From a virus, in IMG/VR virus record IMGVR_UViG_3300010397_000018, positions 1 through 48,519 of that record: 48,519 nt of DNA. One strand, written 5' to 3'. Of the stretch, positions 226 through 43,146 are shown in pieces (position 1 is the first letter of the stretch; each line of letters begins with the position of its first letter). Below the pieces are notes generated by a model. The model was given only the letters and a program-made list of their open reading frames with translations. It was not told the origin of the DNA and did not search any database. The translations under genes were made by a program, and so were the position numbers.

Positions 226-963
226 TCATGGTTCGGTGTGTAAAATTCTCCATGCGAGCGCAGCCACTCTTGGAATTTGTCCATTCCCAATGGCGCTGAT
301 GCGGTCCACGTAGTTGGCCACCCCATTACTTCCTCTGCAAAGTCCGGATGCGTGTATTGAGGATCGGTTTCGCATAGCCTCAATCCCTCTGACATCTTCG
401 CCCCACGGAAATGGGGTGAACCGCGAAAGCGCGGCTTCGACGCCCCCTTGAACTCGTTTTTCCCAATGGTTGGCAGCGAGTATCCATAGCCTTTCACGCT
501 GGTGTCGTGCGCCAACATCTCCGCCTGAAAACACTCCCCATCTAGCATCATACCCCATTTCGGCCAAGTCCCACAAAACACGCCACAGCCCTCGGGAGGT
601 GAGTCGTGGGGAGTTTTCCACAAAAACAAATCGTGGCTGAACTTCGCGAACGATTCTGGCCTGTTCTCTCCATAGTGCGCTCCTGGGGTCCGATAGTCCG
701 GATGCGAAGGGATTTGCCTGGCTGATTCCTTGGCACGGAAATCCGCCGGCGACGACATCGACATGCCCGCGCCACGGCTTGCCGTCGAAGGTGGTAACAT
801 CATCCCAAATGGGAAACTTTGGGAGGATGCCGTCTCGTTGCCGCTGCAAGAGCACTTTTCGGCAGTAGGGTTCAATTTCCACAGCACAGACGCAGGTATG
901 TCCGAGAAGCATTCCGCCGAGGATTCCTCCCCCTGCTCCTGCAAAAAGGTGTAGCTCACGCAT
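226..963 (-). CDS. DNA (cytosine-5) methyltransferase, short target-recognition domain
   Basis: Motif I LFAGAGGG, motif IV GGFPCQ, motif VI FVFVENSP, motif VIII QRERLWILA, motif X GNGQIPRVA. AAGGAG lies 5-6 nt upstream of the ATG. Confidence 0.92.
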   Translation of the reverse strand: MRELHLFAGAGGGILGGMLLGHTCVCAVEIEPYCRKVLLQRQRDGILPKFPIWDDVTTFDGKPWRGHVDVVAGGFPCQGISQANPFASGLSDPRSALWREQARIVREVQPRFVFVENSPRLTSRGLWRVLWDLAEMGYDARWGVFSGGDVGARHQRERLWILAANHWEKRVQGGVEAALSRFTPFPWGEDVRGIEAMRNRSSIHASGLCRGSNGVANYVDRISAIGNGQIPRVAALAWRILHTEP

Positions 964-984
964 GCGCTCCTTTCATGTTTCGGT

Positions 985-1036
985 GTAAAAGAAAGCCCGC
1001 CGCGTTCTGGTCTTGCACTCCAGAGCCGCGACGGGC
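985..1036 (-). terminator. Possible intrinsic terminator (hairpin plus U-tract on the minus-strand RNA)
   Basis: Minus RNA GCCCGUCGCG...CGCGGCGGGC (995..1004 pairs with 1027..1036; the G.U pair forms only on the minus strand), followed by UUUCUUUUAC. It conflicts with an open 50-codon ORF (973..1125) covering the same stretch. Confidence 0.35.
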
Positions 1037-1141
1037 GAATCGAAATTTAAATGCATCGGTGCAAGCGATGTGTCGCACGGCCAAAAGCCACTGCTGGCGA
1101 CCCTGTGAAAATAGGCAAAGATCATGGTTCGGTCAAGCACA

Positions 1142-1768
1142 TCATGCTTCGGGGCTGTCGATTTTTGCGGGGTGGGTGGAGGCGTCGATGGCTTGGTTCA
1201 GCCGCTCCCGGTCCTTCCGCATCTCCGCCGCCTCTTTCTCCAGTTCGGCGATGCGGGCGCGGGCATCGGAGAGTTCACCTTTAAGGCGTTGCACGTGCCC
1301 GCTGACATTCTGGTATGCGGCCTCTTTATCGTCCACTTCTCTGCAAAGCTTGTGGACCTCATTTTCCAGATCGTCGCGTTGTTGAATGACCGGCACCCGT
1401 TGGCGGGTGACTTTTTCGGCGCGATCGCATAAACCACGAATCTCGTTCGCCATCGCACTATCGTTTCCAGTGAGCGCAGCTTTGATGCGCTGGAACTCGT
1501 CAATGTTCAGATCGAGATTGTCCGTAAGATGATCCACCTCCGCCAACAGCCCGAGGATGGTCTGTGGGTCGGCGGCGGCGATGTAGGAGGCGTCTTTTTG
1601 TGCCTGTTGTTCTGCGGGCTCTCCGGGTTCGCTGGTTTCGTCTTCTCCGATGGCGCAAGCCGGGCCAGTGGCGCGCCATTCGTCGCCATCGGTTTCAAGC
1701 CAAACGCCACTTGACCATTGTTTGCTCGCCCCTTCCGCCAGCCGCTTGAGTTCGGAGGGAGGGGTCAT
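1142..1768 (-). CDS. Hypothetical coiled-coil protein (possibly ead/Ea22-like)
   Basis: 208-aa ORF; the ATG overlaps the upstream stop (ATGA). Acidic N-terminal half, heptad-like C-terminal half. AADPQTILGLLAEV resembles the Ea22-like N-terminal motif, from memory only. Confidence 0.55.
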   Translation of the reverse strand: MTPPSELKRLAEGASKQWSSGVWLETDGDEWRATGPACAIGEDETSEPGEPAEQQAQKDASYIAAADPQTILGLLAEVDHLTDNLDLNIDEFQRIKAALTGNDSAMANEIRGLCDRAEKVTRQRVPVIQQRDDLENEVHKLCREVDDKEAAYQNVSGHVQRLKGELSDARARIAELEKEAAEMRKDRERLNQAIDASTHPAKIDSPEA

Positions 1769-1941
1769 GGCTGAACTACAGTGCAGGTTTCTTTTTCGGT
1801 ATCAATTTCAACCGTGATGATTTCTCCATACTTTATGAATTTCTTCGCAATGGGCTCCACTAACTCGCGGTCGTCTGGAGAAAGATCTTGGATTGCGTAG
1901 AATAGCGCGTCTGGCGTTTTGAATGTAATTTTGGTCTTCAT
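1765..1941 (-). CDS. Small conserved hypothetical protein, paralog of 45299..45535
   Basis: MKTKITFKTPDALFYAIQ...KYGEIITVEIDTEKETCTVVQP aligns with MKYRITMKDPDGPYEAIQ...EYGEYVTLEIDTEANTCVVVPRK. Start trimmed to the internal ATG because the longer ORF overlaps the upstream gene. Confidence 0.7.
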   Translation of the reverse strand: MKTKITFKTPDALFYAIQDLSPDDRELVEPIAKKFIKYGEIITVEIDTEKETCTVVQP

Positions 1942-1960
1942 TTGTTCGTGTATTTGAAAT

Positions 1961-2797
1961 TCACTTGGCCGGTGGAGGGGTCGCTCCTCCGCAGCCACAG
2001 CCTCCCCAGTCGTGCTTATCCATAAGCTCCCCGGCTTCGATGCGCTGGCGGAGTTGCCAGAGGTAAAGGTTGTTATGCACCCCACCGCGCCGGTCCTTCA
2101 ACATCGACCAGGGCGTTCCGCCATCGTTTGTGATTTGTTGAGCCGTAAATCGCTCTTCCTCTTCCCACTCGGCGAAAGCTGGCTCGTCCACGTGGTAGAG
2201 ATGCACCCAATGGGAGATGCCGGCGCGGACGCATCGACCTCCGCAGTTGTTGTGCGGAAAGCCAAGCGTGTAAAGGCGCGGGATCTTCAACCCCAGCTTC
2301 TCCGCCTCGGCCTGCATTTTGCACTTATCCCAATACGGGGCCTCGGTCATCGGCGCTTCAATCCGCCAAGAGGGCAGCTCGCGCCGCAAATCGTCCAGGC
2401 GCTTTCCTTCCGTCCAGTCGAAGCCCATGTAGAGCACCGAGGAAAGCTCCATGCAGTTTTCGCGGCGCCAGCGGTCCAGCGGTTCGCGCTTGAGGTAGAT
2501 GGAGCAAATCGGGAAGCGAGCGTTCCCGATGATTCCTTTCTCGCGGAAGAGCTGCCACGGCGTGCGCCCATCGGCGATGCGGGTAATCGGAACGCCGAGG
2601 AGACGCGCGGCTTGCTCGTTGAATGTGTAAAGCTCTTCGTCCTCGATGAGCGTATCCGCGAACAGCAAAACGGTGTCCTTGGCGCCATGCTCTGCGACCA
2701 CGCGATGAGCCGCCCAAAAGGAGCAGAGCCCGCCGGAGAAATTGACGACGTGTTTCACGCGAGCTCCTTTCCAGCCTCCAAAACCTCCCTGCGCCAC
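1961..2797 (-). CDS. PP-loop ATP pyrophosphatase, PAPS reductase/DndC-like family
   Basis: PP-loop VVNFSGGLCS; PICSIYLKREPLDRW resembles the CC..K..PL motif of the PAPS reductase family; C-terminal Cys clusters NCGGRCVRAG and GGCGCGG. Confidence 0.7.
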   Translation of the reverse strand: MAQGGFGGWKGARVKHVVNFSGGLCSFWAAHRVVAEHGAKDTVLLFADTLIEDEELYTFNEQAARLLGVPITRIADGRTPWQLFREKGIIGNARFPICSIYLKREPLDRWRRENCMELSSVLYMGFDWTEGKRLDDLRRELPSWRIEAPMTEAPYWDKCKMQAEAEKLGLKIPRLYTLGFPHNNCGGRCVRAGISHWVHLYHVDEPAFAEWEEEERFTAQQITNDGGTPWSMLKDRRGGVHNNLYLWQLRQRIEAGELMDKHDWGGCGCGGATPPPAK

Positions 2798-3533: not shown

Positions 3534-3949
3534 AGATTTTCGAGAGCTTCAACACACACCGTGATCCCCGGCTTATCCGCCCACCGCTTCGACAGCCGCA
3601 CGTCGCACACCTGCGCGTCGTCGTTCCAAAAGCGGAGCGTGGTCATGCAGTCCTCGAGGAGCTTGATCATATTGCTCAAGTCAGGGCGCACGTCGCACCA
3701 GCGGGCGCCAGCGGCGCGGTTGCGCTTCGTCTCACTCTTCCGCCACGGCATGCGCCAATCGACCGTGAGGCGCAGCGGACCGGCGAGCGGAGCGGCGGGC
3801 GCGTGAGGCTGAAGCAGCGCCAATAGCGAGTTCTCGGCCTGCGCCACGGGCTTCTTTTTGAAGAAGCGGATTCCCATTGGCGTGCGGCACGCGCCCTTTT
3901 GCTGCGCCGTCACTTTCGGGGGCACGCAGGGGATGGTGAAGAGGATCAT
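3530..3949 (-). CDS. rusA: RusA-family Holliday junction resolvase
   Basis: RPDLSNMIKLLEDCMTTLRFWNDDAQVCDVRLSKRW matches the RusA core (pDlDNl.K...D.L....w.DD.qv); start trimmed to MILFTIP (ATGA overlap with the dnaN stop). Confidence 0.8.
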   Translation of the reverse strand: MILFTIPCVPPKVTAQQKGACRTPMGIRFFKKKPVAQAENSLLALLQPHAPAAPLAGPLRLTVDWRMPWRKSETKRNRAAGARWCDVRPDLSNMIKLLEDCMTTLRFWNDDAQVCDVRLSKRWADKPGITVCVEALENL

Positions 3950-5052
3950 TGGATGCGATAGGGCATCAGGACCGCGGTTGCGTCCCCGTTTCGGATCAAG
4001 CATGGGTCGGAAGCGCTCTGAAGGTTGATCGTGCACTCTTCGCCGCCGACCAGAGCCAAGGCCTGACGAAGTTGATCTGGCGCATACGCAACCTCGGTAG
4101 GCTTTCGGTCCTTCTTGCTGCCCAGCCTCTCCACCGGCGCGACGCCATCACACTGGCCGGGAGTGTTGCTGGAAATGGTGATCTCGCTCTCACTGGCGGC
4201 CACTTTTACCGAGGGCGCAGTTTCACTGACGCACAGGCCAGCGAAAGCGAGCGCTGCGAGCATTTCAGAGCGAGCGAAAGTGATGTTGAATTTTCCCTCG
4301 GCGGGAATGATGGGCGCGTAATTGGGGTATTCGCCTTCGATCAGCTTCGAGCAAAGCGTCCAATCGTGACCACGCGCACGAATGCCGCTCTCGCCAATCG
4401 CAAAGGAGGTCACCGAGTCTTGCGGAGCGTCTGCCCCATCCAGCGCCACCAGAATCTTTACCGATGCATTTGGAATGATCGCCTCCGCTGGCAGCTTTGG
4501 CATTGATTCCACCAACTTCAGGCCAAGAACCTTCCCCGTGGTCGCCACAGCAGCCATGGATCTCAGGTCTTTGCGATAGTGCATGCAGACGCCGCAAACC
4601 CGCTCCCTGGAAGGGTCATTGCTGGCGAATGGAGCTACAGCGGCGATGGTGGTACCCAGCAGTCCAGCGGGGATTTCCACGGCTCCATCAAGAGTGGCGG
4701 GAATTTTCGGAAATTCTTCAACCGGGAGCGTGAAGAGATTCATCACACGCTCGCCGCCGGTGACGGTCAGCTTGCCCTTCTCGTGCACGAGGTTGACATC
4801 CAGGGAGTCCATTTTTTGGAGCGCCGCGCCGAGACGCGAAGCCGAGACCGCGCACGAGCCCTCGGTATCCACGGTGGCCTCGGATTGAATGGAAAGATAG
4901 CGATCCAGGTCCGAGCATGTCGCCGTAAGCACGCCCGTCTTGGCGTCCAGAAGCACGCACAGCAGCGCGGGCAGCGAGAGTCGGCCAACGATAACCTTGC
5001 TGGCCTTGGTGACGCACTCGATGAGTTTGGTTCGATTGATGGTGAGTTTCAT
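3946..5052 (-). CDS. dnaN: DNA polymerase III beta sliding clamp
   Basis: 368 aa. MKLTINRTKLIECV start, LIEGEYPNY (clamp ...dg.FPdY motif), C-terminal LMPYRIQ, three-domain length. Confidence 0.85.
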   Translation of the reverse strand: MKLTINRTKLIECVTKASKVIVGRLSLPALLCVLLDAKTGVLTATCSDLDRYLSIQSEATVDTEGSCAVSASRLGAALQKMDSLDVNLVHEKGKLTVTGGERVMNLFTLPVEEFPKIPATLDGAVEIPAGLLGTTIAAVAPFASNDPSRERVCGVCMHYRKDLRSMAAVATTGKVLGLKLVESMPKLPAEAIIPNASVKILVALDGADAPQDSVTSFAIGESGIRARGHDWTLCSKLIEGEYPNYAPIIPAEGKFNITFARSEMLAALAFAGLCVSETAPSVKVAASESEITISSNTPGQCDGVAPVERLGSKKDRKPTEVAYAPDQLRQALALVGGEECTINLQSASDPCLIRNGDATAVLMPYRIQ

Positions 5053-6272: not shown

Positions 6273-6941
6273 TTACCAGGTCTGCTCGGGCGCTTTGTCC
6301 AGGTCGTTGTCGCTCGGCTCACGTTCCGGCAGCGCCGGGACGGCAGCGGGCTCCGGCAACGTGTCGGCGAATTTGATGCCAGTCACTTCGCGGGCGTTGG
6401 CGGCTTTGGTGGGCGTGTAATCCTCCACTTCCTCGCGAACTCCGACGCCCTTCAGCGCATCGGGAAATGCGTCGCGAATCGCCCAGGAGCGCGCCCGCAT
6501 GGCCATCATGCGCCGCGGATATTTCTTCCACACCGGCCCATCCAGCAATCCGGCACGAACGGCATCCCTGACGCTGAAGGTGCGCGTGACTGGCTCCTTG
6601 CCCGTGCGCTTCACCACACAGCGGGCGAGCTTCTTTTCCTCGTCTTCGCTGTCCTCAAAGGTTTCGATCACATCCTCGCATTCGGGATGCGCTTTGACGA
6701 CGGCCAGCGCACCATCGCCCCAAATCACAGGACGGTTGTTGATGACGGCGACCGATTGAAGGGCCTGCATGGGCGACAGCCCAAGCTCCATACCGTATTG
6801 CATCGCCACCATGATCGCCTCGGGCGACTTCAGGTCCTTTGGCGCGAGCTGCGAGGCGTGAATGGTTTGCGCGAACTGCGCCATGTCGGCGAGCGAGCGG
6901 AGCTGTACGGGCGCGGATGTGGTAGCGAGTTGGGAGTCCAT
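6273..6941 (-). CDS. recT: RecT-family single-strand annealing recombinase
   Basis: AIMVAMQYGMELGLSPMQALQSVAVINNRPVIWGDGALAVV and KKYPRRMMAMRARSWAIRDAFPD match the RecT core; the R/P-rich N-terminal extension of the long ORF was rejected. Confidence 0.85.
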   Translation of the reverse strand: MDSQLATTSAPVQLRSLADMAQFAQTIHASQLAPKDLKSPEAIMVAMQYGMELGLSPMQALQSVAVINNRPVIWGDGALAVVKAHPECEDVIETFEDSEDEEKKLARCVVKRTGKEPVTRTFSVRDAVRAGLLDGPVWKKYPRRMMAMRARSWAIRDAFPDALKGVGVREEVEDYTPTKAANAREVTGIKFADTLPEPAAVPALPEREPSDNDLDKAPEQTW

Positions 6942-6943: not shown

Positions 6944-7213
6944 TTAAAAGTCGGTGGTGCTTCGGCGGGGTTGCTGTTGCTGTTGGGATTCGGAGTGCTG
7001 TCCGCCCTTCTTGGTCTTGGCCTTCACGCGGACGCTGAGGAATTGTTTGCCGGCGCCCGTCTTCTTCAGCCACCCGTCGAGGAAAGCTTCCCACTGCGCC
7101 TGGCACGCAGGGCACTCCAGCATGATCGTGCCGGTGCGGTCGGGGTGCTTGTCTTCGGTCTTCTTGTCGTTCTGCCACAAGGAGCCGGAATTTGGTTTTT
7201 GTTCGTAGGCCAT
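6944..7213 (-). CDS. Small basic protein with a CxxC motif and a Q-rich tail ending in DF (possible ssDNA-binding accessory protein)
   Basis: 89 aa. KPNSGSLWQNDKKTEDKHPDRTG N-terminus, CPACQ, QQQQQPRRSTTDF tail; positioned directly upstream of recT. Confidence 0.45.
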   Translation of the reverse strand: MAYEQKPNSGSLWQNDKKTEDKHPDRTGTIMLECPACQAQWEAFLDGWLKKTGAGKQFLSVRVKAKTKKGGQHSESQQQQQPRRSTTDF

Positions 7214-7404: not shown

Positions 7405-7500
7405 CTATTTCCGTTTGGATTTGCGCTTCAGGACCCACGCGAGCCCGACGACCGAGAGCGTGCCGACGATCGCGAGTCCGGCTTTGAGGTTGTCGGTCAT
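7405..7500 (-). CDS. Mini membrane protein (31 aa)
   Basis: Hand translation gives MTDNLKAGLAIVGTLSVVGLAWVLKRKSKRK: one TM helix plus a basic tail. It fits exactly between neighbouring genes and is below the ORF-track length cut-off. Confidence 0.45.
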   Translation of the reverse strand: MTDNLKAGLAIVGTLSVVGLAWVLKRKSKRK

Positions 7501-7502
7501 GG

Positions 7503-7862
7503 CTAGGCGGCTTTGGTGGCGGCCTCGACGGCAGCGGCGGGGACTTCAGATTGAGAGGACGCAACCTCTTCACATTCACTGATGCGCAGCCGAACGCCTT
7601 CCTCGGTACGTTTGACCCAATCGAAGTGCGTCGGCCCCGAGGCTTCGCGGTTCCAGCCCTCCTTTCCGAAAAGTTGACACAGCCGAGGAAGGGCAGGGCG
7701 AGTAAATACGATCTCAGCCTGCCGGGCATGCACATACATGTATGCCGGAAGCGTTGCCCGCGCCGCGCACAGGCGGTCGCAGAAGACTTGCAGCCGCTGT
7801 GCGGCATGCGCGATCTGATCGGTGTCCTTCTGGAGATTTGGATTGGTCTGTGGTGTGTTCAT
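7503..7862 (-). CDS. Hypothetical protein (119 aa)
   Basis: Start trimmed to MNTPQTNPN (ATG 7862); no motif recognised. Confidence 0.55.
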   Translation of the reverse strand: MNTPQTNPNLQKDTDQIAHAAQRLQVFCDRLCAARATLPAYMYVHARQAEIVFTRPALPRLCQLFGKEGWNREASGPTHFDWVKRTEEGVRLRISECEEVASSQSEVPAAAVEAATKAA

Positions 7863-8112: not shown

Positions 8113-8576
8113 GGGGCGGTAGCGGCCTCCTGGTGGAGTGGAAGCACCCGCTTGGCGGCAGCCTCAATTTCGGACTCTGGGACTTCGAAATAGTTCGCCA
8201 GTCGGAGCGCATGATCTGCGCGGAGCCGAGGAAGCCCAGCCTCGTAATCGTTAATGTCAGAAGCGGAGATGCCGACCGCTTCTGAAAAGTCTTTCAGCTT
8301 CATCAGATTTTCCGCGCGATGCTCGCGGATCATTTGAGAAAGCGCATTGAGGCCAAGCGGCTTCCCCTCAAGCTGGGCAAGAAGCAGGTAACCCAGCGCG
8401 CCCTCCGACGCACGACGCACGCCGACGCGCCGCCGAATCTTCTCCAGTTGCTCCTTGTAGTGGGCCACGCACTTCCCAGCAAAAAACAGAGGTTCAGAGC
8501 AGGCGCCGCAAAGGCCCTGGTTCACATGCTGGATTTGAAAGAGCCGCTGACGGGAGACAGTTTGAGAATCGGGCAT
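8109..8576 (-). CDS. XRE-family helix-turn-helix transcriptional regulator with an N-terminal Cys-rich region
   Basis: LMKLKDFSEAVGISASDINDYEAGLPRLRADHALRLANYF is a typical HTH_3/XRE domain; N-terminal CGAC...C..H. Confidence 0.75.
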   Translation of the reverse strand: MPDSQTVSRQRLFQIQHVNQGLCGACSEPLFFAGKCVAHYKEQLEKIRRRVGVRRASEGALGYLLLAQLEGKPLGLNALSQMIREHRAENLMKLKDFSEAVGISASDINDYEAGLPRLRADHALRLANYFEVPESEIEAAAKRVLPLHQEAATAP

Positions 8577-8638
8577 AATTCGGAGTTGGTTAAATCGCTC
8601 GCCAGACCGTCGCGCTTTGGCCGCTGGCGTTGGGGGTT

Positions 8639-13228: not shown

Positions 13229-13735
13229 ATGAAAACCCTCCTCTGCCTGATGCTGATGGCGTGCGCGTGCTGTGGCCAAACGATCAAATGGGAGAACGCT
13301 GTGCCCGATCCTGGCATCTCGTTTGAAAAAAGCTATGAGGCTGGCGGCAAGACCGATGCCATTGGGACAATGGCCGCCATCATTGGCTACCAAGATGCCG
13401 GCTTGCAGTTCATCGGCTCCCAAGTGCTGTGGTATACGAATACAGGCAAGCTCATTAAATCGGATGTCCTCGGCTCGAATGACGGCGTTTGGGTCGTCTT
13501 CGTGAGCCCCGCAATCCTTGTGATACAGGTCACAAATGGAAATGATTCCTATTTCCGAAAGTACGTCCGAAAGGGTGTTTCGGTTGTTTCTAAAGACACG
13601 CCACTAACGGGCGGAGCAGCCGAATACTCTCCATCTAGTGGCACGTTCGACAACTCGGACAAGCTGGGATTTTTTGTGTTTAGTCGGTCGCAGTCCTTGA
13701 AAACTGTGACCGGAATCAAGCGCTACTTGCGCTGA
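13229..13735 (+). CDS. Secreted/lipoprotein moron candidate (168 aa)
   Basis: MKTLLCLMLMACACCGQ signal peptide with a lipobox-like LMAC; visibly AT-richer than its surroundings; next to int on the plus strand. Confidence 0.6.
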   Translation: MKTLLCLMLMACACCGQTIKWENAVPDPGISFEKSYEAGGKTDAIGTMAAIIGYQDAGLQFIGSQVLWYTNTGKLIKSDVLGSNDGVWVVFVSPAILVIQVTNGNDSYFRKYVRKGVSVVSKDTPLTGGAAEYSPSSGTFDNSDKLGFFVFSRSQSLKTVTGIKRYLR

Positions 13736-19545: not shown

Positions 19546-19580
19546 GGTTCGGAGAGTTTAACGGGTTAAGTTCGGATTGT

Positions 19581-26294: not shown

Positions 26295-26307
26295 GGTTCG
26301 GTGGTGG

Positions 26308-28434: not shown

Positions 28435-28450
28435 GTTTCGGTGCAAATGG

Positions 28451-29269: not shown

Positions 29270-29289
29270 ACTTCGGTGTGTGTTATATG

Positions 29290-32281: not shown

Positions 32282-32318
32282 GCTTCGGTATCGCTACTAA
32301 ACCCGTTGAGCTGGAGTG

Positions 32319-33017
32319 TCAATGCCATTCATGGCCATGTTTCGGAAGATCCGCGTGCAGCGCCACCGTGTAAGTGTCGATTCCAACCTTGAGTCCGCAC
32401 TCGCGCGCCAGCTTGCAGACGCCGTACCAGCCAGTGAACGCGGGGTGATCAGGAACGCCAGCCATGGAGAAGATGTCAGCCGGCGCGAGGAACATCATGC
32501 CCACCACGTCCATCTCCACAAAGCGCTCCTGTTGGGGCAGCGGATGGCCGTCGAAGTCATGCCAGTAGGGCGCGTCATGCTTCAGGTTCCGGCCAGCGAT
32601 GTTACCCGGCGTGTTGGGCGCCACACCGTCGGTGCCCTTCTGGATGCACGCGGCGGTGTCGTAGAGCCGCGGCGTGCCTTCGATGAGCGGCAGCGGCGCG
32701 GTGATCCCCGTGGGGTTCACGCTCAGCAGGCGGCTGCACACGTCGGCTGGGTAATCGATCACGTCGGCGTCCACCCAGAGAACGAAGTCCCACTGTCCCA
32801 GGTCCACGGCGCGCACGCACCGGTCCGCCACGCGGCAAAGGCGGCTCCATGGGCTCGCCTCGTTCGGCAGGCTCTCGCCCTCGCGGAAGTCCAGCCAGAG
32901 CCCAAACTCGTGCTCTTTATCCGAGGCAATCGCGCGGTGCGCAAGCCCCATGGCTCGGCATTGGAGCGCGTAGTTTAGCTTCCGATGTATCGGCGAACAG
33001 ATGAGGATTCTTGCCAT
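32319..33017 (-). CDS. GT-A fold glycosyltransferase (DxD)
   Basis: ILICSPIH N-terminal strand, FVLWVDADVIDYP DxD motif, MDVVGMMFLAP; start trimmed to MARILIC (ATG 33017, overlapping the upstream gene by 43 nt). Confidence 0.6.
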   Translation of the reverse strand: MARILICSPIHRKLNYALQCRAMGLAHRAIASDKEHEFGLWLDFREGESLPNEASPWSRLCRVADRCVRAVDLGQWDFVLWVDADVIDYPADVCSRLLSVNPTGITAPLPLIEGTPRLYDTAACIQKGTDGVAPNTPGNIAGRNLKHDAPYWHDFDGHPLPQQERFVEMDVVGMMFLAPADIFSMAGVPDHPAFTGWYGVCKLARECGLKVGIDTYTVALHADLPKHGHEWH

Positions 33018-33580
33018 ATGGTCATGAGTTGGCGGCGGTTCGGGACATTGGCCCAATGCCGGATCAGGGTGTGCGGCCCTGCGTTGTGCTCGAAAGCGTT
33101 CCACGTGCTGCGGTCGAGGTAATGCACGTCGAGATCGTCGATGAACGTGTTGAGGACGCCCTGCTCGTTCCACGGCGTCTGCGCATATTTCGGATCTTTG
33201 TATCCGGCGTAAACGCGATCCAGCGCCGCGAACGCCTCGGGGCACTGGCGCCAGCACATCACGCCAGAGTTGGCGTGCCCTTCGTCGCGAGTGATGGCCA
33301 GCGTGTAATCGCCCAGCAGTTCCCAAGTCTCAGCCTGCGTGGGCGGCCGCAGCATCACGGCGTCGGCGTCGATGCACAGGACGTAGGGGTGCGATTCTAG
33401 TAGGCGGCGGATGATCTGGATCTTGGCCCAGTACGGCGGCCGGTCGTAATCATCCTTGATGTATTCGAAATCGTAGGCGAACGCCGGGAGCCCGCGAATC
33501 GCGCGCTTGATGGACTCCCCGGAAATGATGGCCTCGCCCATCATCTTGTAGTTGGCCGAGCCGGAAATCAGGATAGGCAC
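32975..33580 (-). CDS. Nucleotide-diphospho-sugar glycosyltransferase (GT34/GT8-like)
   Basis: PILISGSANY, PPYWAKIQIIRRLLESHPYVLCIDADAVML (DxD), HANSGVMCWRQC, WNEQGVLN; GTG 33580 overlaps the 3' end of the upstream gene. Confidence 0.65.
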   Translation of the reverse strand: MPILISGSANYKMMGEAIISGESIKRAIRGLPAFAYDFEYIKDDYDRPPYWAKIQIIRRLLESHPYVLCIDADAVMLRPPTQAETWELLGDYTLAITRDEGHANSGVMCWRQCPEAFAALDRVYAGYKDPKYAQTPWNEQGVLNTFIDDLDVHYLDRSTWNAFEHNAGPHTLIRHWANVPNRRQLMTIWQESSSVRRYIGS

Positions 33581-34611
33581 AGCAGCTCCTTTGCTTTGGC
33601 GACGACGACCTCGGGGGAAATTGCCGCGAGGGCAGCGCACGATTTACCATCAAAGCTTGGCGCGTCCTTACACTGATGCGGCAGGACGAAGAGATGACTG
33701 CGGCAGGGAGCGTGCGGACAGGCGCGGAAGCCGACAATCGGGTGGTGATTGCGGTAATAGCGGATGCGGTCGCCGGGATGGAAGAGACCCCATAGCGAAA
33801 TCACAGGCACATGCGGGAATGCGGCCGCGAGGTGGCCAATGCTGCTGTCTGGGCAAATGACGATGGAGGCAAATTTCACGTATGGAATCATCGCGCGGAA
33901 GGTGCGCCACTTTTGCTTTTCTCCGGCCTCAACGACGAAGATTCCCTCTAGTTGGAGACGGAGAATTAGTTCCTTCGTATGGGGCCAATCTCGATTGCCA
34001 TTGCTGCATCCGTTCTGGATGAAAACGTACTGGCCTTCGATTGGGGGCTTCCCATCAAAGATGTTGTCGTCGTCCTTTTCCACCACCACCGGAATCTTCC
34101 GGTCGCTCGGCACACTCGCCGGATCGATGCCCGCGAAGGCCAGCATGTTATCGATCGCGCATCGCTGGTCCGGCTCGCTGTCCGACTCCAGCATGTTCTC
34201 GTAAAACAAATGCTGGTCACCGCGGACCTCATCGAGCACCGGAAATCCGGGGCGGACGTTCACGCCCAGCCCATGCCACAGGTCCACGTTGCTCGGCCGG
34301 CAGTAGAGATCAATCTGCGCCTCGGGATTTCGCCGGCGGATCTCTGCCACGACGGCCGTCGCCATCAGGGTGTCGCCGATGGCGCCGTGGCGATAGATTG
34401 CCAGCCGTCCGCTGCCGAGCGGCTGGCCATGGTATCGGTTCTCGTACGAGTTGAAATGCGAGAGCCGATACTCCACTTCGGCGCCGAGCCTTTCGATGAG
34501 CCCCGATTCTAGCGTGCGCGCCATGCCCGTCGGCACGACGTAGCGCACGCCAGGCTGAAAGACGGTGCCGTCCTTAGTGTCGATCTGATGCGGGCTGGAA
34601 AAGATGTGCAT
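33568..34611 (-). CDS. GT9-family glycosyltransferase (heptosyltransferase-like)
   Basis: RLAIYRHGAIGDTLMATAVVAEIRRRNPEAQIDL (GT9 N-terminal signature) and ICPDSSIGHLAAAFPHVPVISLWG (DSGpmHLAAA...P.v.lfG); ATG 34611 lies 5 nt after the TerL stop. Confidence 0.75.
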   Translation of the reverse strand: MHIFSSPHQIDTKDGTVFQPGVRYVVPTGMARTLESGLIERLGAEVEYRLSHFNSYENRYHGQPLGSGRLAIYRHGAIGDTLMATAVVAEIRRRNPEAQIDLYCRPSNVDLWHGLGVNVRPGFPVLDEVRGDQHLFYENMLESDSEPDQRCAIDNMLAFAGIDPASVPSDRKIPVVVEKDDDNIFDGKPPIEGQYVFIQNGCSNGNRDWPHTKELILRLQLEGIFVVEAGEKQKWRTFRAMIPYVKFASIVICPDSSIGHLAAAFPHVPVISLWGLFHPGDRIRYYRNHHPIVGFRACPHAPCRSHLFVLPHQCKDAPSFDGKSCAALAAISPEVVVAKAKELLCLS

Positions 34612-38430: not shown

Positions 38431-38705
38431 TTGAGAAGTGCCGCTGCTCCCATCGCGCCAATGACGCCACCGATGCCGTTGGCGCGAGCGGTGATAGTGC
38501 GCCCAATAGCGTCCTGCTCAGTCGAATGCCGGACGCCGGTCATGGCCAGCGATCCATCGGCCCCAAGGTTCAGCGAATCGCAGTCGGCGTTGGTGACGAG
38601 CTTGGGCTTGCCGTTGGGGTAGAAGACCATGGTGTGCGCCGCGCAGCCGGAAAGCGTCAGCGCAAAGCCGAGAGCGAGGAGGAGAATTAGGAGTGCCAGT
38701 TTCAT
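38427..38705 (-). CDS. Lipoprotein with a C-terminal transmembrane segment (unimolecular-spanin-like)
   Basis: MKLALLILLLALGFALTLSGC lipobox (LSGC) plus a C-terminal glycine-zipper TM GIGGVIGAMGAAALLK; ATGA overlaps on both sides. Confidence 0.5.
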   Translation of the reverse strand: MKLALLILLLALGFALTLSGCAAHTMVFYPNGKPKLVTNADCDSLNLGADGSLAMTGVRHSTEQDAIGRTITARANGIGGVIGAMGAAALLK

Positions 38706-38998
38706 GGTTCGGAAATGTGCGCGGCAGCCCCGCCCAAGGAAACCGCCGCGCGGGGCGAGTGCCCGAAAGGCTTGCTCCCGCAAATCGTGATCAGGTTCGG
38801 CTCAATAGGAGACGGCGCCCCTGGAATCACGTACATCACGGATGGCTTTGGGCGCTTTGTTTCGGCCCAGATAAGGTCGAAAAGGTGCGCCATTGCTGCC
38901 TCCCGCCGCTCCTCATCCCTCAACGGCGTATCCAGCCCGCTCGGGCCGTAGTTTGGGCCAGCGGGGTTGAAGCGGCGGACTAGGGGATCGGTGGTCAT
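38702..38998 (-). CDS. Hypothetical protein (98 aa)
   Basis: ATG 38998 forms an ATGA overlap with the upstream stop. Confidence 0.5.
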   Translation of the reverse strand: MTTDPLVRRFNPAGPNYGPSGLDTPLRDEERREAAMAHLFDLIWAETKRPKPSVMYVIPGAPSPIEPNLITICGSKPFGHSPRAAVSLGGAAAHISEP

Positions 38999-39223: not shown

Positions 39224-39556
39224 TCACAGTGCGATGCGAGAAAGGATGTCGCGGAGGCGAGTAATGCAGCCTTCGTTGCCGCCCTGAATCTGGAGTAGCG
39301 CCTCAGCCAAAGGGCACTCCTGCGGGCGCGGTCCGTCCTTCCCGGTGCCTTGCGCGCCGGGGACGGGAATCAGGATGGGTTGCAATCGCTGCTCAAGCGC
39401 GGTCATGGCATTGTTGAGGTCGCTGGACTGCTGCGCCAGCGAGACGATCCGCTCGTCAATTTGTGAGCGTGGAAGCTGCGGCTCCGGTGCGTTGCTGATA
39501 TTCCGTGGTGCGAAGCTCGACTGAGCCGCCTGGTTGGATGCAGATGCCGTCATCAT
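39224..39556 (-). CDS. Hypothetical protein (110 aa)
   Basis: ORF with tandem ATG ATG, directly downstream of a sigma70-like promoter. Confidence 0.55.
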   Translation of the reverse strand: MMTASASNQAAQSSFAPRNISNAPEPQLPRSQIDERIVSLAQQSSDLNNAMTALEQRLQPILIPVPGAQGTGKDGPRPQECPLAEALLQIQGGNEGCITRLRDILSRIAL

Positions 39557-39562
39557 ATTTCG

Positions 39563-39591
39563 GTATTAGTCCTCGCCTACCCCGTTGTCAA
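39563..39591 (-). promoter_or_regulatory. Sigma70-like promoter, TTGACA-N17-TAATAC
   Basis: Minus strand: TTGACA (39591..39586), 17-nt spacer, TAATAC (39568..39563). The ATG at 39556 lies 7 nt after the -10 element, which predicts a leaderless or near-leaderless mRNA. Confidence 0.45.
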
Positions 39592-39600
39592 GGGTGGCGT

Positions 39601-39807
39601 TCATGGTTCGGAGGGTGCAGGAGGTGGGAAGTATTTCCCAAACTCCTCCGGCCTTACTCCGGGCGGCATTTCAAACCAAATATCCCGCGCTTCTGGCCCG
39701 AATTGACCAGCTCCAGTGCATTTGAATCCAGCCTGCTCCAGAAAGTGCTGAATCATGTCAGCATGCGAGCCGGGTTTTACAGTGAGGAAAACTTCCCGAT
39801 GGTTCAT
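39601..39807 (-). CDS. Hypothetical protein (68 aa)
   Basis: The ATG lies 7 nt downstream of the tRNA-Gly 3' end. Confidence 0.5.
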   Translation of the reverse strand: MNHREVFLTVKPGSHADMIQHFLEQAGFKCTGAGQFGPEARDIWFEMPPGVRPEEFGKYFPPPAPSEP

Positions 39808-39814
39808 AAAACTT

Positions 39815-39888: not shown

Positions 39889-40083
39889 AGAAATGTCGCA
39901 TCACCACCAATTCCAGCGCCCGCTCAGATCCTCCAGCCGTTCGCCGCAGGTAGCTAGCCCGCAACACGCACTGAATTTGCAACGCCGTTTGCCTTGGTTT
40001 ATCCTCGCTTCATTCGCGACTTCCACGAGGACAGGTGGCTAAACCGTCGAAGAATAGGGCTTTTGCCCGATGCGACAAATTAA

Positions 40084-40152
40084 TTGCAGCTTGCGGACTT
40101 GCACCGCCTCCTCTGGTTATGAGCCAGATGTGACCTCGTTCACTTAGCTGCG
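40084..40152 (-). tRNA. tRNA-like element, anticodon CAU (Met/initiator-like); possibly degenerate
   Basis: CGCAGCT-AA-GTGA-ACGAGG-TCAC-A-TCTGG-CTCATAA-CCAGA-GGA-GGCGG-TGCAAGT-CCGCA-AGCTGCA-A. Features: C1.A72 mismatch and A73 as in bacterial initiators, a CUCAUAA loop, an odd T-loop (G55), a 3-nt variable region, no CCA. Confidence 0.35.
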
Positions 40153-40209
40153 TTTTTGAAAGAACACCCGGGATTCATCGTTGAGAGGAGTTGTTCCGGG
40201 ACGGTAAAT

Positions 40210-40285: not shown

Positions 40286-40757
40286 ATGTAAATCATTCAT
40301 CGGGCCGGGCGCTACTCCGGCTAAGGTTCTCGGAAGTAACTCCGATGCCATCCTTGCTCTCAGTCTTCGCCAGCGTCGGACGTTTACAAGGCGCCTCGCT
40401 GGCCTCTGACTGAGCCGTATCAGCCAGTCGTGAGTCGGTAGCTACTCCGCCTCTCAACTGTGACCCTCGGACCCTTCCCCTTCGATGGGCGTGTCTGCTT
40501 TCCACGCCGCCGATGAAAATGAATCACCAGCGACAAGTGGTCGGAGTCGTTTCCAAATGTAGACTCCTGGGCATTCGCTGGTGAAGATGTGAAAGAACTG
40601 GAAATTGGTGCCGCAGCCTTTCGGGTTGCACGCCTACTCAGCCACGGCAAAGCACCTACGGTTGACCGTTGCTGATGACGGGCCGCACGTGCAGTGGCAT
40701 TCTCCCCAATCATGCTTCGGAGTCAATCAGATTTCGGAGGCTCGACCCTGAAACGCA

Positions 40758-40800: not shown

Positions 40801-40802
40801 GC

Positions 40803-41129
40803 ATGATTCGGACTAAGCAAACGAACCAAACCACGCGCCGCAGTTCGCGTCAAGCGGAAGCCATCAGGAAATGTATGCGTGAATGGCAATTCGCGACTGG
40901 CCACCTATCGGTTCTAAGCCAGCGCTATCGGCATCCGGCTTATCTGCGGTTGCTCGAATTTGGAAGCGCGGCGGTCCCAGTTATCCTGAAGCGCATGAAG
41001 CGCAATTTCGGATGGTGGTTTGATGCGCTACGTAGACTGACCGGAGAGGACCCAGCAAAAGGAGCGGAGTCATTCGATGATGGCAATAGATGCTGGCTTC
41101 GGTGGGGCAAAGAAAAGGGGCTGATTTAA
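40803..41129 (+). CDS. Hypothetical basic protein (108 aa)
   Basis: First gene of a three-gene plus-strand operon; TAATG overlap with the next gene. Confidence 0.55.
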   Translation: MIRTKQTNQTTRRSSRQAEAIRKCMREWQFATGHLSVLSQRYRHPAYLRLLEFGSAAVPVILKRMKRNFGWWFDALRRLTGEDPAKGAESFDDGNRCWLRWGKEKGLI

Positions 41130-41871: not shown

Positions 41872-42285
41872 GCTGAGGAAACCACCGCCAGCGGGGCTCA
41901 CAGCGCGTTGGCGGGGCGGATCTGGGGGAGGACCAGCGGCGTTGCTCCCGATGCGTGGAGTGCCCTACGGCAGGATTGTTCCGATCCTGCTATCGCAAGC
42001 CGCTGAACGGCGGCCCAACGCTCGCTGGCAATGGTAGGAATAGCTCAATGAGCATGTTTCGGCAAGCCTCCCGTGCGCGAACCTGAGGCTGGTGGTGCTA
42101 GATGATGAACCTTTTCCCCGCCGGCCTGGGCAAAAGGGTGGCGGGTGGGTGGGCCTGGTGGTGCGCAGGTGCGGGCTGTTGTCATGCGACAAGCGCACCT
42201 ATTCGTCGGCTCCAACAGGTAAGAACTTTTGTGATCTGGTAACCCATCCAAAACCGCTATCTCAACATACTGGTGGGCAATAGGT

Positions 42286-42300
42286 TGTGATAACATCACA
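42286..42300. repeat. Perfect palindrome TGTGAT-AAC-ATCACA
   Basis: 6-bp arms with a 3-nt spacer, in the 545-bp non-coding region between convergent transcription units. Confidence 0.6.
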
Positions 42301-42370
42301 CATTAAAGAATCGGATCGAATAGGAATTTGGAGTTACGCTGGCGTAATGCCGACACGCAGCACGGATATA

Positions 42371-42384
42371 CGCGCACGTGCGCG
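42371..42384. repeat. Perfect 14-bp palindrome CGCGCACGTGCGCG
   Basis: Self-complementary 14-mer, 33 nt from the 3' end of the HNH gene 42417..42917. Confidence 0.6.
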
Positions 42385-42416
42385 AGGGGCGGATGATGCC
42401 CTTTTATGGACTGACA

Positions 42417-42917
42417 CTAGCCAACTGCACATTCAGCCTCTCGTCTCATCCTCTCCTCCCAAGAAACTGGCTTAGCTCGATGCACTGCGCCATTCCACTT
42501 GGCGCCCTTCTGAAGATTCTCAGTTGCCCAAAGCGGCTGGAAGTTTGAGAAATGGAAGCACTCTTGGATTTGCGCCGGGTCGTTGAGATCGAACGATGCG
42601 CATGGGCGCTTATGGTCGGCGTGCCATTTGCCGTAGTTCTGCCATCTCATCCCTGGCAACCAAAGCGATTGCAGATGCTTCCTGAAGTCGTGAATGGAGC
42701 AGCCGATTAACGCTCTGAGCCTTTTGTGCTGTGAGTGGCCATGAGCCTTGATGGCTAGCGGGATCATGGCTCGCAAGCGCAGCACGTGGCGGAAATACGG
42801 ATCTTGGCGCTTCCTGAGCGCTCTGTAGTCGTGCTTGGGCTTCCTGGTTTCCGATGGTGCTGGCGCGAACGATTTCGCCCACTTCAGCGCATTCCCAAGT
42901 CGGTCATTTTCAGGCAT
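42417..42917 (-). CDS. HNH endonuclease
   Basis: GKWHADHKRPCASF ... NFQPLWATENLQKG (H-N-H core with the conserved N..K). Confidence 0.75.
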   Translation of the reverse strand: MPENDRLGNALKWAKSFAPAPSETRKPKHDYRALRKRQDPYFRHVLRLRAMIPLAIKAHGHSQHKRLRALIGCSIHDFRKHLQSLWLPGMRWQNYGKWHADHKRPCASFDLNDPAQIQECFHFSNFQPLWATENLQKGAKWNGAVHRAKPVSWEERMRREAECAVG

Positions 42918-43146
42918 GCGAAATCATACCCAAAATCATGTTTCGGACAAGCGTTTACCCCACGCTGCCGCGCTTCGCTTGGCGGGCTGTCCAGTCGCCA
43001 AAGAGTGCTTCGCAACTCGCTGCGCTCGCCCTGCGGGCCTTCGACTCTTCGCCAGCCTTTTGGACTCTCCACTGCACGCACTTCGTGCTCCTTTGGTTGT
43101 TGGTCTCGAATTGGTTTGGACTGAAGGGCGTACGCTTTGCGTACTG

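Follow-up and report, generated by a model that had tools for sequence, protein, structure and literature searches.

What is the short CCGAA word that abuts so many start codons in an uncultivated phage whose genes mostly lack a Shine-Dalgarno (SD) sequence, and at which level is it read? The window, 48,519 nt of phage DNA, holds 23 exact copies of (A/T)CCGAA-N-C-ATG on the same strand, mostly at or adjoining gene starts. The full pattern, CCGAANNATG, is found 23 times on the minus strand and 0 times on the plus strand, against 1.76 copies expected from pentamer and ATG frequencies (Poisson tail 3e-18), and the genome's two most frequent 10-mers are CCGAAACATG and CCGAACCATG. Equally, the pattern CATNKTTCGG has 17 matches against 0.96 expected, with 17 or more reached in 0/100 shuffles. 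The ATG is counted as integral to the word since it follows CCGAANN 23 times, compared with five times for the runner-up triplet. In a genome-wide count, other CCGAA-to-ATG spacings are at background, the 2-nt spacing being fixed, and one-mismatch variants show no enrichment over background in the genome; the word is all-or-none.

All 14 coordinates listed in the original prediction hold, 11 of them matching CATNKTTCGG directly and those at 1143, 32279 and 29267 reading CATGCTTCGG, CATGCTTCGG and CATACTTCGG, that is, CCGAAGCATG, CCGAAGCATG and CCGAAGTATG on the minus strand. Nine copies had been missed (13011, 19420, 28042, 28191, 33184, 39554, 40711, 40802 and 8574), and the observation is confirmed to be stronger than had been stated. 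Among the variants thought to be displaced, those at 5380 and 10737 do carry CCGAA 8 nt before ATG, a spacing seen four times overall and barely above background, whereas the one at 8574 is actually in register. The copies span both early and late/structural regions in a single orientation, as follows.

42937-42946, minus: CCGAAACATG in a 229-nt gap; ATG opens a 9-codon ORF overlapping ATG 42917 of an HNH-like gene; overlaps the sigma70-like match TTGTCC-N16-TATGAT; homology to the related phage L112 stops at 42952.
42053-42062, minus: CCGAAACATG, non-coding, directed into the plus-strand repressor block at its 3' end; ORF of 21 codons in the window and 45 in L112, peptide not conserved.
40802-40811, minus: CCGAATCATG in the switch region, opening a 4-codon ORF, within the inverted repeat CCGAACGGTAG...CTACCGTTCGG; the analogous L112 copy lies ~60 nt upstream of L112's 40720-type site.
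40711-40720, minus: CCGAAGCATG in the spacer of sigma70-like TTGACT-N16-GAGAAT, ahead of an RNA-gene cluster, not a protein start; a 35-nt island shows 97% conservation in L112, whose version of the site is CCGAAGCGTG (GTG).
39602-39611, minus: CCGAACCATGA; TGA ends an uncalled 68-aa ORF (39601-39807), ATG opens a 12-codon ORF.
39554-39563, minus: CCGAAATATG at the first ATG of a 110-aa gene; the public gene call takes the next ATG.
38703-38712, minus: CCGAACCATGA, where a 92-aa lipoprotein-like gene begins (signal peptide MKLALLILLLALGF...C); gene 38702-38998 has its stop overlapping the ATGA.
33184-33193, minus: CCGAAATATG, out of frame within a 201-aa glycosyltransferase-like gene; kept in L112 as CCGAAGTATG.
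32336-32345, minus: CCGAAACATG at the end of gene 32319-32951; a 13-codon ORF stops 16 nt before the portal ATG; L112 homology stops at 32349.
32279-32288, minus: CCGAAGCATG, where the portal gene (797 aa) begins; conserved in L112.
29267-29276, minus: CCGAAGTATG, where a 272-aa scaffold-like gene truly begins, part of TTGACA-N11-CCGAAGTATGAGCG; the protein's N-terminus MSE... is conserved in four phages; word kept in L112 and L029, ACACAGTATG in L030.
28432-28441, minus: CCGAAACATG, opening a 196-aa gene that follows a gap of 16 nt; conserved in L112.
28191-28200, minus: CCGAACGATG, internal, out of frame, the sole copy with G at -1; L112 has CCGCACGATG; probably a chance match (~1.8 chance copies expected; not conserved in L112).
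28042-28051, minus: CCGAAACATG within the 196-aa gene, in frame at Met131.
26292-26301, minus: CCGAACCATG at the start of a 144-aa gene, 13 nt past the capsid gene stop.
19543-19552, minus: CCGAACCATG, opening a 258-aa gene that follows a gap of 35 nt; CCGAATCATG in the L029 orthologue; sigma70-like TAGACA-N17-TAAACT directly upstream.
19420-19429, minus: CCGAAACATG within the 258-aa gene, in frame at Met42.
13011-13020, minus: CCGAACCATG on the strand opposite the integrase gene, within its 3' part; perhaps an antisense element, perhaps a match by chance.
8574-8583, minus: CCGAATTATG, opening a 155-aa HTH_3 gene that follows a gap of 62 nt.
1143-1152, minus: CCGAAGCATGA; TGA is the stop of gene 1142-1768, ATG opens a 7-codon ORF.
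1123-1132, minus: CCGAACCATGA; ATG overlaps the 7-codon ORF stop and opens a 50-codon ORF; within the sigma70-like match TTGACC-N17-TATTTT.
974-983, minus: CCGAAACATGA; opens a 6-codon ORF covering the AAGGAG and ATG of the C5-methyltransferase gene.
227-236, minus: CCGAACCATGA; TGA is the methyltransferase stop; a 13-codon ORF ends in the next gene's ATGA (HNH, start 191).

The word is present at 8/57 real starts and 10/73 junction or intergenic ATGs against 4/553 deep-internal ATGs (p about 1e-6), a 20-fold difference, and at least eight genes truly begin at its ATG, including the scaffold-like gene and the lipoprotein-like gene, whose signal peptide begins at the word's Met. The claim that it tracks translation starts stands to this extent, but not for at least three conserved copies (42062, 40811-type and 40720), which lie within non-coding regulatory DNA. 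As had been proposed, first genes after gaps are marked: the word is preferred where a gap of 13 nt or more precedes the gene (7/19 vs 1/41), and even where the gap measures 35-274 nt its position is exactly that of the start codon. It is missing from the capsid gene and from most ATGA-coupled genes, and the suggested association with mini-ORFs and ATGA coupling is not supported, as a mini-ORF stop/start relay (3-5/10) is indistinguishable from the other junction ATGs of the same genome (13-18/63; p = 0.27-0.68) and not above the empirical null. The general context is A/C-rich and G-poor: of 65 starts, 39 have C at -1, 34 have C at -2, 30 have A at -4 and 61 (94%) use ATG. This context resembles the 3' part of the word. 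The word itself is not an SD and is tied to ATGs in a fixed register; a GGAG/GAGG/AGGA core at -18 to -5, found at 18% of starts vs 12.6% of random positions, bears out that SDs are mostly absent, and the AAGGAG before the methyltransferase gene is real.

Could the word simply belong to the host? The host is probably a member of the Verrucomicrobiota; relatives of the integrase occur almost only in this phylum. Verrucomicrobiales are SD-less genome-wide (PMC10798248; PMC10783764), and in the phylum of the probable host a missing SD is nothing unusual (PMC10798248). A host-wide start context, the refutation considered at the outset, was not found: 80 Verrucomicrobiota loci (1.18 Mb, including 20 Chthoniobacterales loci) contain 34 copies against 48 expected, with no enrichment, and the orthologous starts of sister phages are without the word despite the same A/C-rich SD-less context. 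In L029, L030 and L031 it is absent from the portal orthologue starts, and the orthologues of the 196-aa gene have TAACCAATTTC... leaders without it; nor do the sister phages possess a dispersed word of their own. It is common only to a 96%-terminase relative and, weakly, to a 74% one. Since L112 keeps 7/8 alignable copies while the flanks vary, and since the internal copy at Met131 of the 196-aa gene arose in the window/L112 lineage by three substitutions (an Arg codon change, D to N and K/T/A to M), the word is counted as under selection. It is real and specific to the phage lineage, not to the host.

Conservation does not reach further upstream than -8, and every copy has C at -7, where T would be needed for a sigma70 -10 element; no conserved flanking -35/-10 element or hairpin was detected alongside the copies, and the idea of a compact leaderless promoter half with a TTACAC-like hexamer is not supported. 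Of five sigma70-like matches on the minus strand of the scanned 39 kb, four touch word copies; the total of such matches is not above shuffles. In three phages, two unrelated genes are preceded by the composite TTGACA-N11-CCGAAGTATGAGCG, and two predicted sigma70 promoters would begin transcription at a gene ATG or no more than about 2 nt from it (window 42917, L112 7425, L029 6918). In L112, the ORF behind the 40720-type site runs through tRNA genes.

We favour, tentatively and with a probability of only about 0.3, the reading of the word as an RNA-level start-codon operator recognized by a lineage-specific factor; the original interpretation is supported in part. (A/T)CCGAA-N-C-AUG would be a cis-acting 11-nt single-stranded RNA tag, including the initiation codon, on minus-strand transcripts, and its reader would be a trans-acting factor particular to the phage lineage rather than the generic host ribosome. 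Bound over -8 to +3, the factor would set whether 30S/70S initiates at the word's AUG. For this reading speak the exact word in its fixed register on the transcribed strand, the genuine starts at its ATG, its enrichment there and after gaps, the missing promoter elements and hairpins, its lack in host-phylum DNA and at sister-phage starts, the signs of selection, and an immunity repressor that is an unlikely reader. That the word acts on RNA and not on DNA, and that a factor binds it, we infer, as we would the sign of the effect, be it activation or repression. Against this reading count the conserved non-genic copies, one of them in a sigma70-like spacer and with GTG in L112, the contact of copies with most of the minus-strand sigma70-like matches, the lack of the word at the capsid gene and at most ATGA-coupled genes, and the mini-ORF relay at background. 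Furthermore, no RNA-binding or RegA-like protein was recognized among the phage proteins, and the lack of one-mismatch enrichment is sharper than usual for a protein-RNA operator.

Two close rivals have to be weighed. One, rather unlikely, is a DNA-level stoperator-like operator, an asymmetric 10-11-bp site of a phage DNA-binding protein used in one orientation in early and late operons, which would block or gate RNA polymerase, for example silencing lytic genes in the lysogen, with the ATG as part of the site; copies would arise most easily at starts because the ordinary context (A at -4/-3, C at -2/-1, ATG) supplies most of the word. The phage is temperate, with an integrase and an opposite-strand wHTH gene, and such an operator would suit the 23 copies per 48 kb in early and late regions, the conserved non-genic copies flanking the repressor block (42946/42062 and 40811/40720), the overlap with sigma70-like -35 elements or spacers (TTGTCC, TTGACT, TTGACC), copy 40720 preceding RNA genes, the TTGACA composite and a lineage specificity typical of immunity systems. 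The stoperators of mycobacteriophage L5/Cluster A (gp71 sites) are likewise asymmetric, present in tens of copies in one orientation relative to transcription, and located in the short spaces between genes in the early and late operons of a temperate phage and at early promoters. They are, however, bound by the immunity repressor, which is here an unlikely reader, since the wHTH part of the putative repressor differs between the window and L112 despite the identical word and the L029 repressor is unrelated. Neither the wordless sister phages nor a sigma70-like total at shuffle level fits well, and the exact start-codon position is kept even in long gaps, whereas we know of no fixed register of stoperators with start codons. 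The other rival, of comparably low probability, is a boundary generating AUG-first RNAs, either the recognition site of a sequence-specific endoribonuclease that cleaves right before the AUG, or a promoter compressed into about -8 to +1 and initiating at the A. Leaderless mRNAs require a 5' AUG but no SD, and leaderless expression is plausible here because of the two predicted sigma70 promoters starting at or next to a gene ATG. The integral ATG at protein starts, changed from A to G (purine kept) at the L112 copy preceding RNA genes, the 94% ATG usage, the all-or-none character as in phage-polymerase promoters or nuclease sites, and a density and orientation resembling phage-specific promoters speak for it. 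Yet the phage has no recognizable RNA polymerase, sigma-like factor or RNase, its large proteins of no recognized type lying in the tail/ejection module beside an SU10-adaptor homologue; an element that ends 2 nt from the start site and has C at -7 is unusable for an enzyme of the sigma70 family; three copies within 180 nt (1152, 1132, 983) are odd for promoters; and host-phylum DNA shows neither enrichment nor clear avoidance.

It is improbable that the word is an intrinsic, factor-free (re)initiation enhancer read by the ribosome of an SD-less host as an optimal Kozak-like context or rRNA pairing site. A at -3/-4 and C at -1, as in the general context of the phage, and the preference for genes after gaps agree with it, but host-phylum DNA lacks enrichment, sister phages and the capsid gene manage without the word, a graded series of near matches is missing, some copies are non-genic and a spacing of 2 nt does not permit pairing with the 3' tail of 16S rRNA. 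To our knowledge, UUCGG is not in the canonical tail either. As Verrucomicrobiales are SD-less (PMC10798248; PMC10783764), other contexts must tune initiation, and the Kozak-like contexts of SD-less Bacteroidia/Verrucomicrobiales share SD independence, an A-rich/unstructured leader and a purine at -3 (PMC6847099; PMC10798248); these are, however, weak, graded and genome-wide in the host, in contrast to an exact 8-10-nt word lacking in host-phylum DNA and sister phages. Equally, termination-reinitiation signals such as TURBS (caliciviruses/influenza B) and bacterial ATGA coupling resemble the copies on ATGA overlaps in placing a motif just upstream of the restart AUG, but most ATGA-coupled pairs here have no word and mini-ORF coupling is at background. 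A linker promoting modular recombination between related phages is highly improbable: window/L112 homology blocks do end at or next to copies (42952, 42052, 38702, 37922, 32349) and RecT-like, PDDEXK (DUF3799) and RusA proteins are encoded, but mosaic joints of phages are generally at gene boundaries, a word of 8-10 nt offers very little length for homology-driven exchange, and in-frame internal copies and the strict ATG register are left unexplained.

For the start-codon operator on RNA, phage T4 provides a precedent in RegA, whose operators overlap AUGs. RegA and RegB are phage factors acting on the initiation regions of many unrelated mRNAs; RegA sites are, however, degenerate and confined to early genes, RegB (GGAG) cleaves at the SD itself, and no homologue of either was found among the phage proteins. 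A second precedent, and the nearest known analogue, are the Start-Associated Sequences (SAS) of Cluster K mycobacteriophages (Pope et al., 2011; PMC3203893), contrasted there with stoperators and still unexplained in function in 2025 (PMC12699233). Both SAS and the CCGAA word are short, asymmetric, in one orientation and a few nt from starts with a strong ATG preference, occur before unrelated gene families in one cluster of temperate phages and are absent from the host genome, with 11-19 and 23 copies, respectively. In contrast to the CCGAA word, which is without SD core or associated inverted repeat, includes the ATG at fixed 2-nt spacing and extends over structural and early regions, SAS are 13 bp (GGGATAGGAGCCC) with an SD core AGGAG, lie at a variable 3-7 bp from the start, are often paired with 17-bp inverted repeats (ESAS) and are confined to the non-structural arm. 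The main use of a start-codon operator in this phage lineage would be de novo ribosome loading at genes after gaps, in a host with SD-independent translation.

The word, (A/T)CCGAA-N-C fused to ATG and cited here by its higher coordinate or by that of its ATG, occurs in the form CCGAANNATG 23 times on the minus strand of the window and not at all on the plus strand, with 1.76 copies expected, which rules out chance or composition as its source; every coordinate at which the original prediction had listed the motif holds. The two commonest 10-mers of the genome are CCGAAACATG and CCGAACCATG, with seven copies each. All 23 copies end in ATG, the triplet following CCGAANN being ATG 23 times and any other triplet at most five times, and spacings between CCGAA and ATG other than 2 nt are at background. 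Information in the aligned copies is found at -8 (A or T in 19 of 23), in CCGAA including the C at -7 (23 of 23), at -1 (C in 18 of 23), in the ATG and, weakly, at +4. Equally, CCGAA with one mismatch in the same register is not enriched (17 seen, about 16 expected), nor are wobble-type variants; the word is all-or-none. No hairpin is common to the copies, and their accessibility equals that of other starts (mean unpaired probability 0.556 at motif sites versus 0.565). Nothing resembling a -35 or -10 element is conserved, with information close to zero at -12 to -9 and around -35, and neither a Bacteroidetes-type TAnnTTTG nor any upstream promoter hexamer is conserved. The proposal of a compact leaderless promoter with a hexamer just upstream is thereby not supported, and a leaderless sigma70 promoter, whose TANNNT would end about 7 nt before the A of the ATG, is rejected by the invariable C at -7.

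The window spans an entire phage-type genome of about 48.4 kb. A direct repeat of 123 bp occupies its two ends (window 1-123 and 48397-48519), the genome being terminally redundant or circularly permuted, and one HNH gene (130 aa, start 191) crosses the terminal junction. The gene set, taken from two public assemblies containing the same contig and mapped onto the window, comprises 65 genes, nearly all on the minus strand, and the genome encodes:

Tyrosine integrase and an opposite-strand wHTH-like gene
Beta-clamp, primase-helicase, RecT-like protein, PDDEXK protein and RusA
C5 methyltransferase, three HNH proteins and an SU10-type adaptor
tRNA-Gly and tRNA-Pro

The phage has its own beta sliding clamp (window 3946-5052) and a DnaA-domain-IV protein (43147-43560), and no DNA polymerase is recognisable in the whole genome. 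Neither DNA nor protein comparison gave a related isolated phage, the family consisting of metagenomic genomes of 44-52 kb defined by their terminase. Among 185k species genomes, relatives of the integrase are found almost exclusively in Verrucomicrobiota, the best being a full-length match of 43% identity in a Chthoniobacteraceae MAG, so that this phylum is the probable host. No prophage relative was found by terminase among the same 185k genomes, the host search gave no tRNA-derived attP, and the beta-clamp is too divergent for host assignment. A hairpin CCGAAAGGGTGTTTCGG (13567-13583), followed by a T-rich run, separates the convergent late operon from the integrase block and looks like a terminator; its stem is made of the word-like CCGAAAC and its complement.

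The predicted scarcity of Shine-Dalgarno (SD) sequences was borne out, with SD-like cores at -18 to -5 in 18% of starts versus 12.6% of random positions, as was the AAGGAG exception, the methyltransferase gene being the only one with a strong SD. Starts in general have an A/C-rich context, C being frequent at -1/-2 and A at -4, and 94% of them are ATG. The word itself cannot be an SD, as CCGAA is not the purine-rich, GGAGG-like complement of the 16S 3' tail and its spacing is fixed at 2 nt versus about 5-10 nt. SD sequences are reported missing genome-wide in Verrucomicrobiales (PMC10798248), and Akkermansia has been termed 'SD-scarce' (PMC10783764); SD absence is thus ordinary for the candidate phylum, unlike the CCGAA word. 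Across 80 Verrucomicrobiota loci (1.18 Mb) the word occurs 34 times versus 48 expected, with at most two copies per locus, most of them internal, and crude start sets from these loci carry it at 0-1 of 200-900 candidate starts. A host-wide, Kozak-like start context, foreseen as an ordinary explanation, is rejected, for the candidate phylum only, on the lack of enrichment. An iterative start-site model of the host loci converged on codon periodicity and was discarded.

Most copies (18 of 23) stand at starts or junction ATGs, distributed as follows on the minus strand:

Real gene starts, eight copies (ATG coordinate): portal 32281, scaffold-like 29269, 28434, 26294, 19545, 8576, 39556 and lipoprotein-like 38705
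Junction or intergenic ATGs, ten copies: ORFs of 4-21 codons and two longer, doubtful ORFs
Deep inside genes, four copies: 28044 and 19422 in frame, 33186 out of frame but conserved, 28193 probably chance
Antisense to the integrase, one copy: 13013

The N-terminus of the scaffold-like protein starting at 29269 is conserved in four phages. The anticipated preference over internal ATGs is present, the word standing at 14% of ATGs in both the start and the junction class versus 0.7% of those deep inside genes (p ~1e-6). Behind a gap of 13 nt or more, 7 of 19 genes carry it, versus 1 of 41 tightly packed genes; portal, scaffold and tail-region genes have copies, the capsid gene and most ATGA-coupled genes none.

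Several observations on gene content arose beside this. The public call for the scaffold-like gene (window 28451-29293) appears wrong, the gene running from 29269 (272 aa) and not from 29014 (187 aa); the call on the plus strand at 29287-29571 is likely to be spurious. For the 110-aa gene the likely start is 39556, and the public calls lack a plausible 68-aa gene at 39601-39807. The C5 methyltransferase region (226-1152), bracketed by four copies, has a lower GC content (56%) and is followed by an HNH gene; it looks like a recently acquired cassette. The interval between terminase and portal (32319-34611) contains three putative glycosyltransferase-like genes, which may serve virion or DNA glycosylation: a GT9-like protein of 347 aa, a Nucleotid_trans-like protein of 201 aa, whose gene is confined to the window, L112 and L029, and one of 210 aa that matches Anp1 faintly.

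The word is enriched only in the window and two relatives, L112 (terminase 96% identical), with 11 copies in 22 kb versus 0.9 expected, and L029 with L144 (74%), with seven copies in 43 kb versus about 1.8 expected on the coding strand. It is not enriched in the sister phages L030, L113 and L031 (terminases 62-70% identical) or in the more distant L005, L028 and L145. Leaders in these sister and distant phages are SD-less too and A/C- or A/T-rich, and orthologous starts in the sister phages have unrelated leaders, for example ACACAGTATG versus CCGAAGTATG in the window. A search for dispersed private words in the sister phages returned only local tandem arrays or codon-level repeats. Looking for the word elsewhere among viral contigs, a tandem-pattern scan of IMG/VR gave nothing beyond tandem repeats and noise. 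L112 keeps seven of eight alignable copies with differing flanking bases, and the internal copy 28051 is a product of the window/L112 lineage, made by one synonymous change of an Arg codon and two amino-acid replacements at variable positions; comparison of the genomes argues that the word is under selection. Late genes of these two phages are 88-92% identical and their early regions mosaic, with an RNA cluster but not the early protein genes in common. Several of their homology blocks stop within a few nt of copies (42952, 42052, 38702, 37922 and 32349); that the word is a recombination linker is nevertheless very improbable. The otherwise unrelated L145 has the integrase module in common with the window (58%), and in L145 70-1442 CCGAA abuts ATG or lies 2 nt before it in three consecutive genes (CCGAAATG twice, CCGAATTATG once), too few to judge.

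That the motif tracks translation starts holds for the eight copies on real gene starts and fails for some conserved copies that are non-genic. Copy 40720 has no gene behind it; L112 reads CCGAAGCGTG and the ORF there runs through tRNA genes. The copy belongs to an island of 35 nt with 97% conservation and falls in the spacer of a sigma70-like TTGACT-N16-GAGAAT, upstream of RNA genes (YrlA-like stem, tRNA-Pro, tRNA-like cloverleaf and tRNA-Gly). Copy 42062 is conserved, its ORF is not. Copy 42946, like copy 1132, overlaps the -35 of a sigma70-like match, and copy 19552 comes directly after one; in the 39 kb scanned, four of five minus-strand sigma70-like matches touch the word, the total of matches not exceeding that in shuffles. 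A composite TTGACA-N11-CCGAAGTATGAGCG precedes the scaffold gene and, in relatives, also an Acb2/Tad1-like gene, whose own ATG lies 11-13 nt beyond that of the word and out of frame with it. Around the methyltransferase, mini-ORFs with overlapping stops and starts form a chain (1145 > 1125 > 976 > 963 ... 229 > 191). The argument from mini-ORF coupling lapses, coupling being seen in 3-5 of 10 cases versus 13-18 of 63 other junction ATGs (p = 0.27-0.68), and a ribosome relay via mini-ORFs is not significant against this empirical null of all other junction ATGs.

The Acb2/Tad1-hairpin-like gene (anti-CBASS/Thoeris sponge; L112 7425-7739, L029 6918-7232) stands directly behind TTGACA-N17-TATGAG, so that a leaderless or near-leaderless transcript is predicted. 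Furthermore, downstream of the repressor block several relatives have a stretch of conserved non-coding DNA, CACCCGCCACCCTTTTGCCCAGGCC...GTTCATCATCTAG (window 42052-42177, L112 5773-5898, L030 about 7440-7510); it stops at the word in the window and L112, not in L030.

As to what might read the word, no RNA polymerase is recognisable by Pfam, PHROGs and PDB sequence search, no sigma factor and no RegA/RegB-like, CsrA/Hfq-like or other RNA-binding domain is detectable, and in a Pfam scan of about 40 proteins no translational regulator was matched. Between the window and L112, the wHTH protein of the opposite strand has only 47% identity, and its L029 counterpart is unrelated; as its HTH part has diverged despite an identical word, the immunity repressor seems unlikely as the reader. 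In the interval covered in all relatives, one protein alone is restricted to the three phages with the word; encoded at 32975-33580 and nucleotide-sugar-transferase-like, it is an unlikely reader as well. A cloverleaf-folding tRNA-like RNA accompanies the word:

Window 40080-40152, minus strand, tRNA-like RNA
L112 about 7080-7150, tRNA-like RNA
L029 about 6716-6795, tRNA-like RNA, divergent and class-II-like with the same two loops

The RNA, missed by ARAGORN and Rfam, is non-canonical, with a CUCAUAA anticodon loop (CAU) and the unusual T-loop UGCAAGU (G at position 55), and the block around it has 95.6% conservation in L112. Related T-arm elements that lack the CAU loop occur in L030 and L031. 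Co-occurrence of the tRNA-like RNA (CAU) with the word in three related genomes may be taken as a lead only. By eye, no UUCGG is present in the RNA cluster of the window (39.8-40.7 kb) or in the L029 element, and direct pairing of the word with the tRNA-like RNA or the cluster is rejected for want of complementarity. Adjoining the tRNA genes, in a block that L112 shares at 94% conservation, a weak match to the YrlA Ro-binding stem (Y-RNA-like; 40524-40581, minus strand, 25 bits, E = 0.019, below gathering) could represent a Y-RNA-like or ncRNA module of the phage.

The word is exact, strand-locked, lineage-specific, fused to ATG in a fixed register, under selection, situated mainly at the 5' boundaries of cistrons and absent from DNA of the host phylum, properties which exclude chance, an SD, a leaderless sigma70 promoter and, for the candidate phylum, a host-wide context. 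Tentatively, with a probability of about 0.3, the word would be a start-codon operator acting at the RNA level, with a factor specific to the lineage as its reader; this reading is ranked first since neither the ATG register nor the coincidence with verified starts then calls for a further assumption. The non-genic, promoter-overlapping copies are better explained by two close rivals, a stoperator-like DNA operator and a boundary making AUG-first RNAs, be it a processing site or a compact promoter. The DNA operator is weakened by the repressor, whose HTH differs between the word-sharing window and L112, and is rather doubtful; the AUG-first boundary is likewise held with little confidence. An intrinsic ribosome enhancer is improbable. 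The RNA operator might, more speculatively, be part of a private 'start-codon code' of a lineage infecting an SD-less phylum, in which an exact 8-nt RNA tag fused to AUG and a phage-borne reader would set which AUGs are used, independently of host initiation rules; that reader could be an ncRNA of the conserved RNA cluster, for example the tRNA-like RNA with the CAU loop.

Among known systems, the closest kind is the Start-Associated Sequences (SAS) of Cluster K mycobacteriophages, which are asymmetric, in one orientation and immediately upstream of starts with ATG preference, follow the consensus GGGATAGGAGCCC with an SD core, are restricted to the non-structural half and in about half of cases have the inverted repeats of ESAS (PMC3203893); their function is still unexplained (PMC3203893; PMC12699233). 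The word resembles SAS in copy number, single orientation (23:0), ATG preference, cluster specificity and absence from host DNA, which in the case of the word means DNA of the candidate phylum. Unlike SAS, it has a different sequence without an AGGAG/SD core, keeps a fixed 2-nt register including the ATG, is present also in structural genes and has neither ESAS nor conserved flanks; it is not a member of the SAS family. The scatter of asymmetric sites over short intergenic spaces of both arms, all oriented alike to transcription, recalls the stoperators of L5-type/Cluster A phages. Stoperators are bound by the immunity repressor and co-vary with its specificity, whereas the word is identical in the window and L112 though the wHTH parts differ, and the L029 protein is unrelated, which speaks against this feature in the word. 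As with T4 RegA operators, the site overlaps the AUG of several unrelated genes, RNA action being putative here, but no RegA-family gene was found in the window (about 40 proteins, Pfam). T7-like or mitochondrial-type nonamer promoters pair a phage RNA polymerase with a near-identical promoter spanning the start site; the word is near-identical across copies, and no polymerase was recognised by Pfam, PHROGs and PDB sequence search.

How start codons are chosen without an SD is an open question for Bacteroidia and, since 2024, also for Verrucomicrobiales. Dispersed start-associated phage words have been unexplained since SAS in 2011, and the CCGAA word is an independent second case, in a phage of a different phylum, with no SD core and an exact AUG register. 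As it cannot act via the anti-SD, three possible mechanisms are left, an operator in RNA, an operator in DNA and a leaderless boundary, and close relatives with and without the word, together with lineage-specific gains in coding sequence, provide natural controls. If a DNA operator were true, stoperator-like genome-wide silencing would extend beyond actinobacteriophages; if a factor-dependent start-site tag were true, it would constitute a new layer of viral translation control and a portable tool for SD-less hosts.
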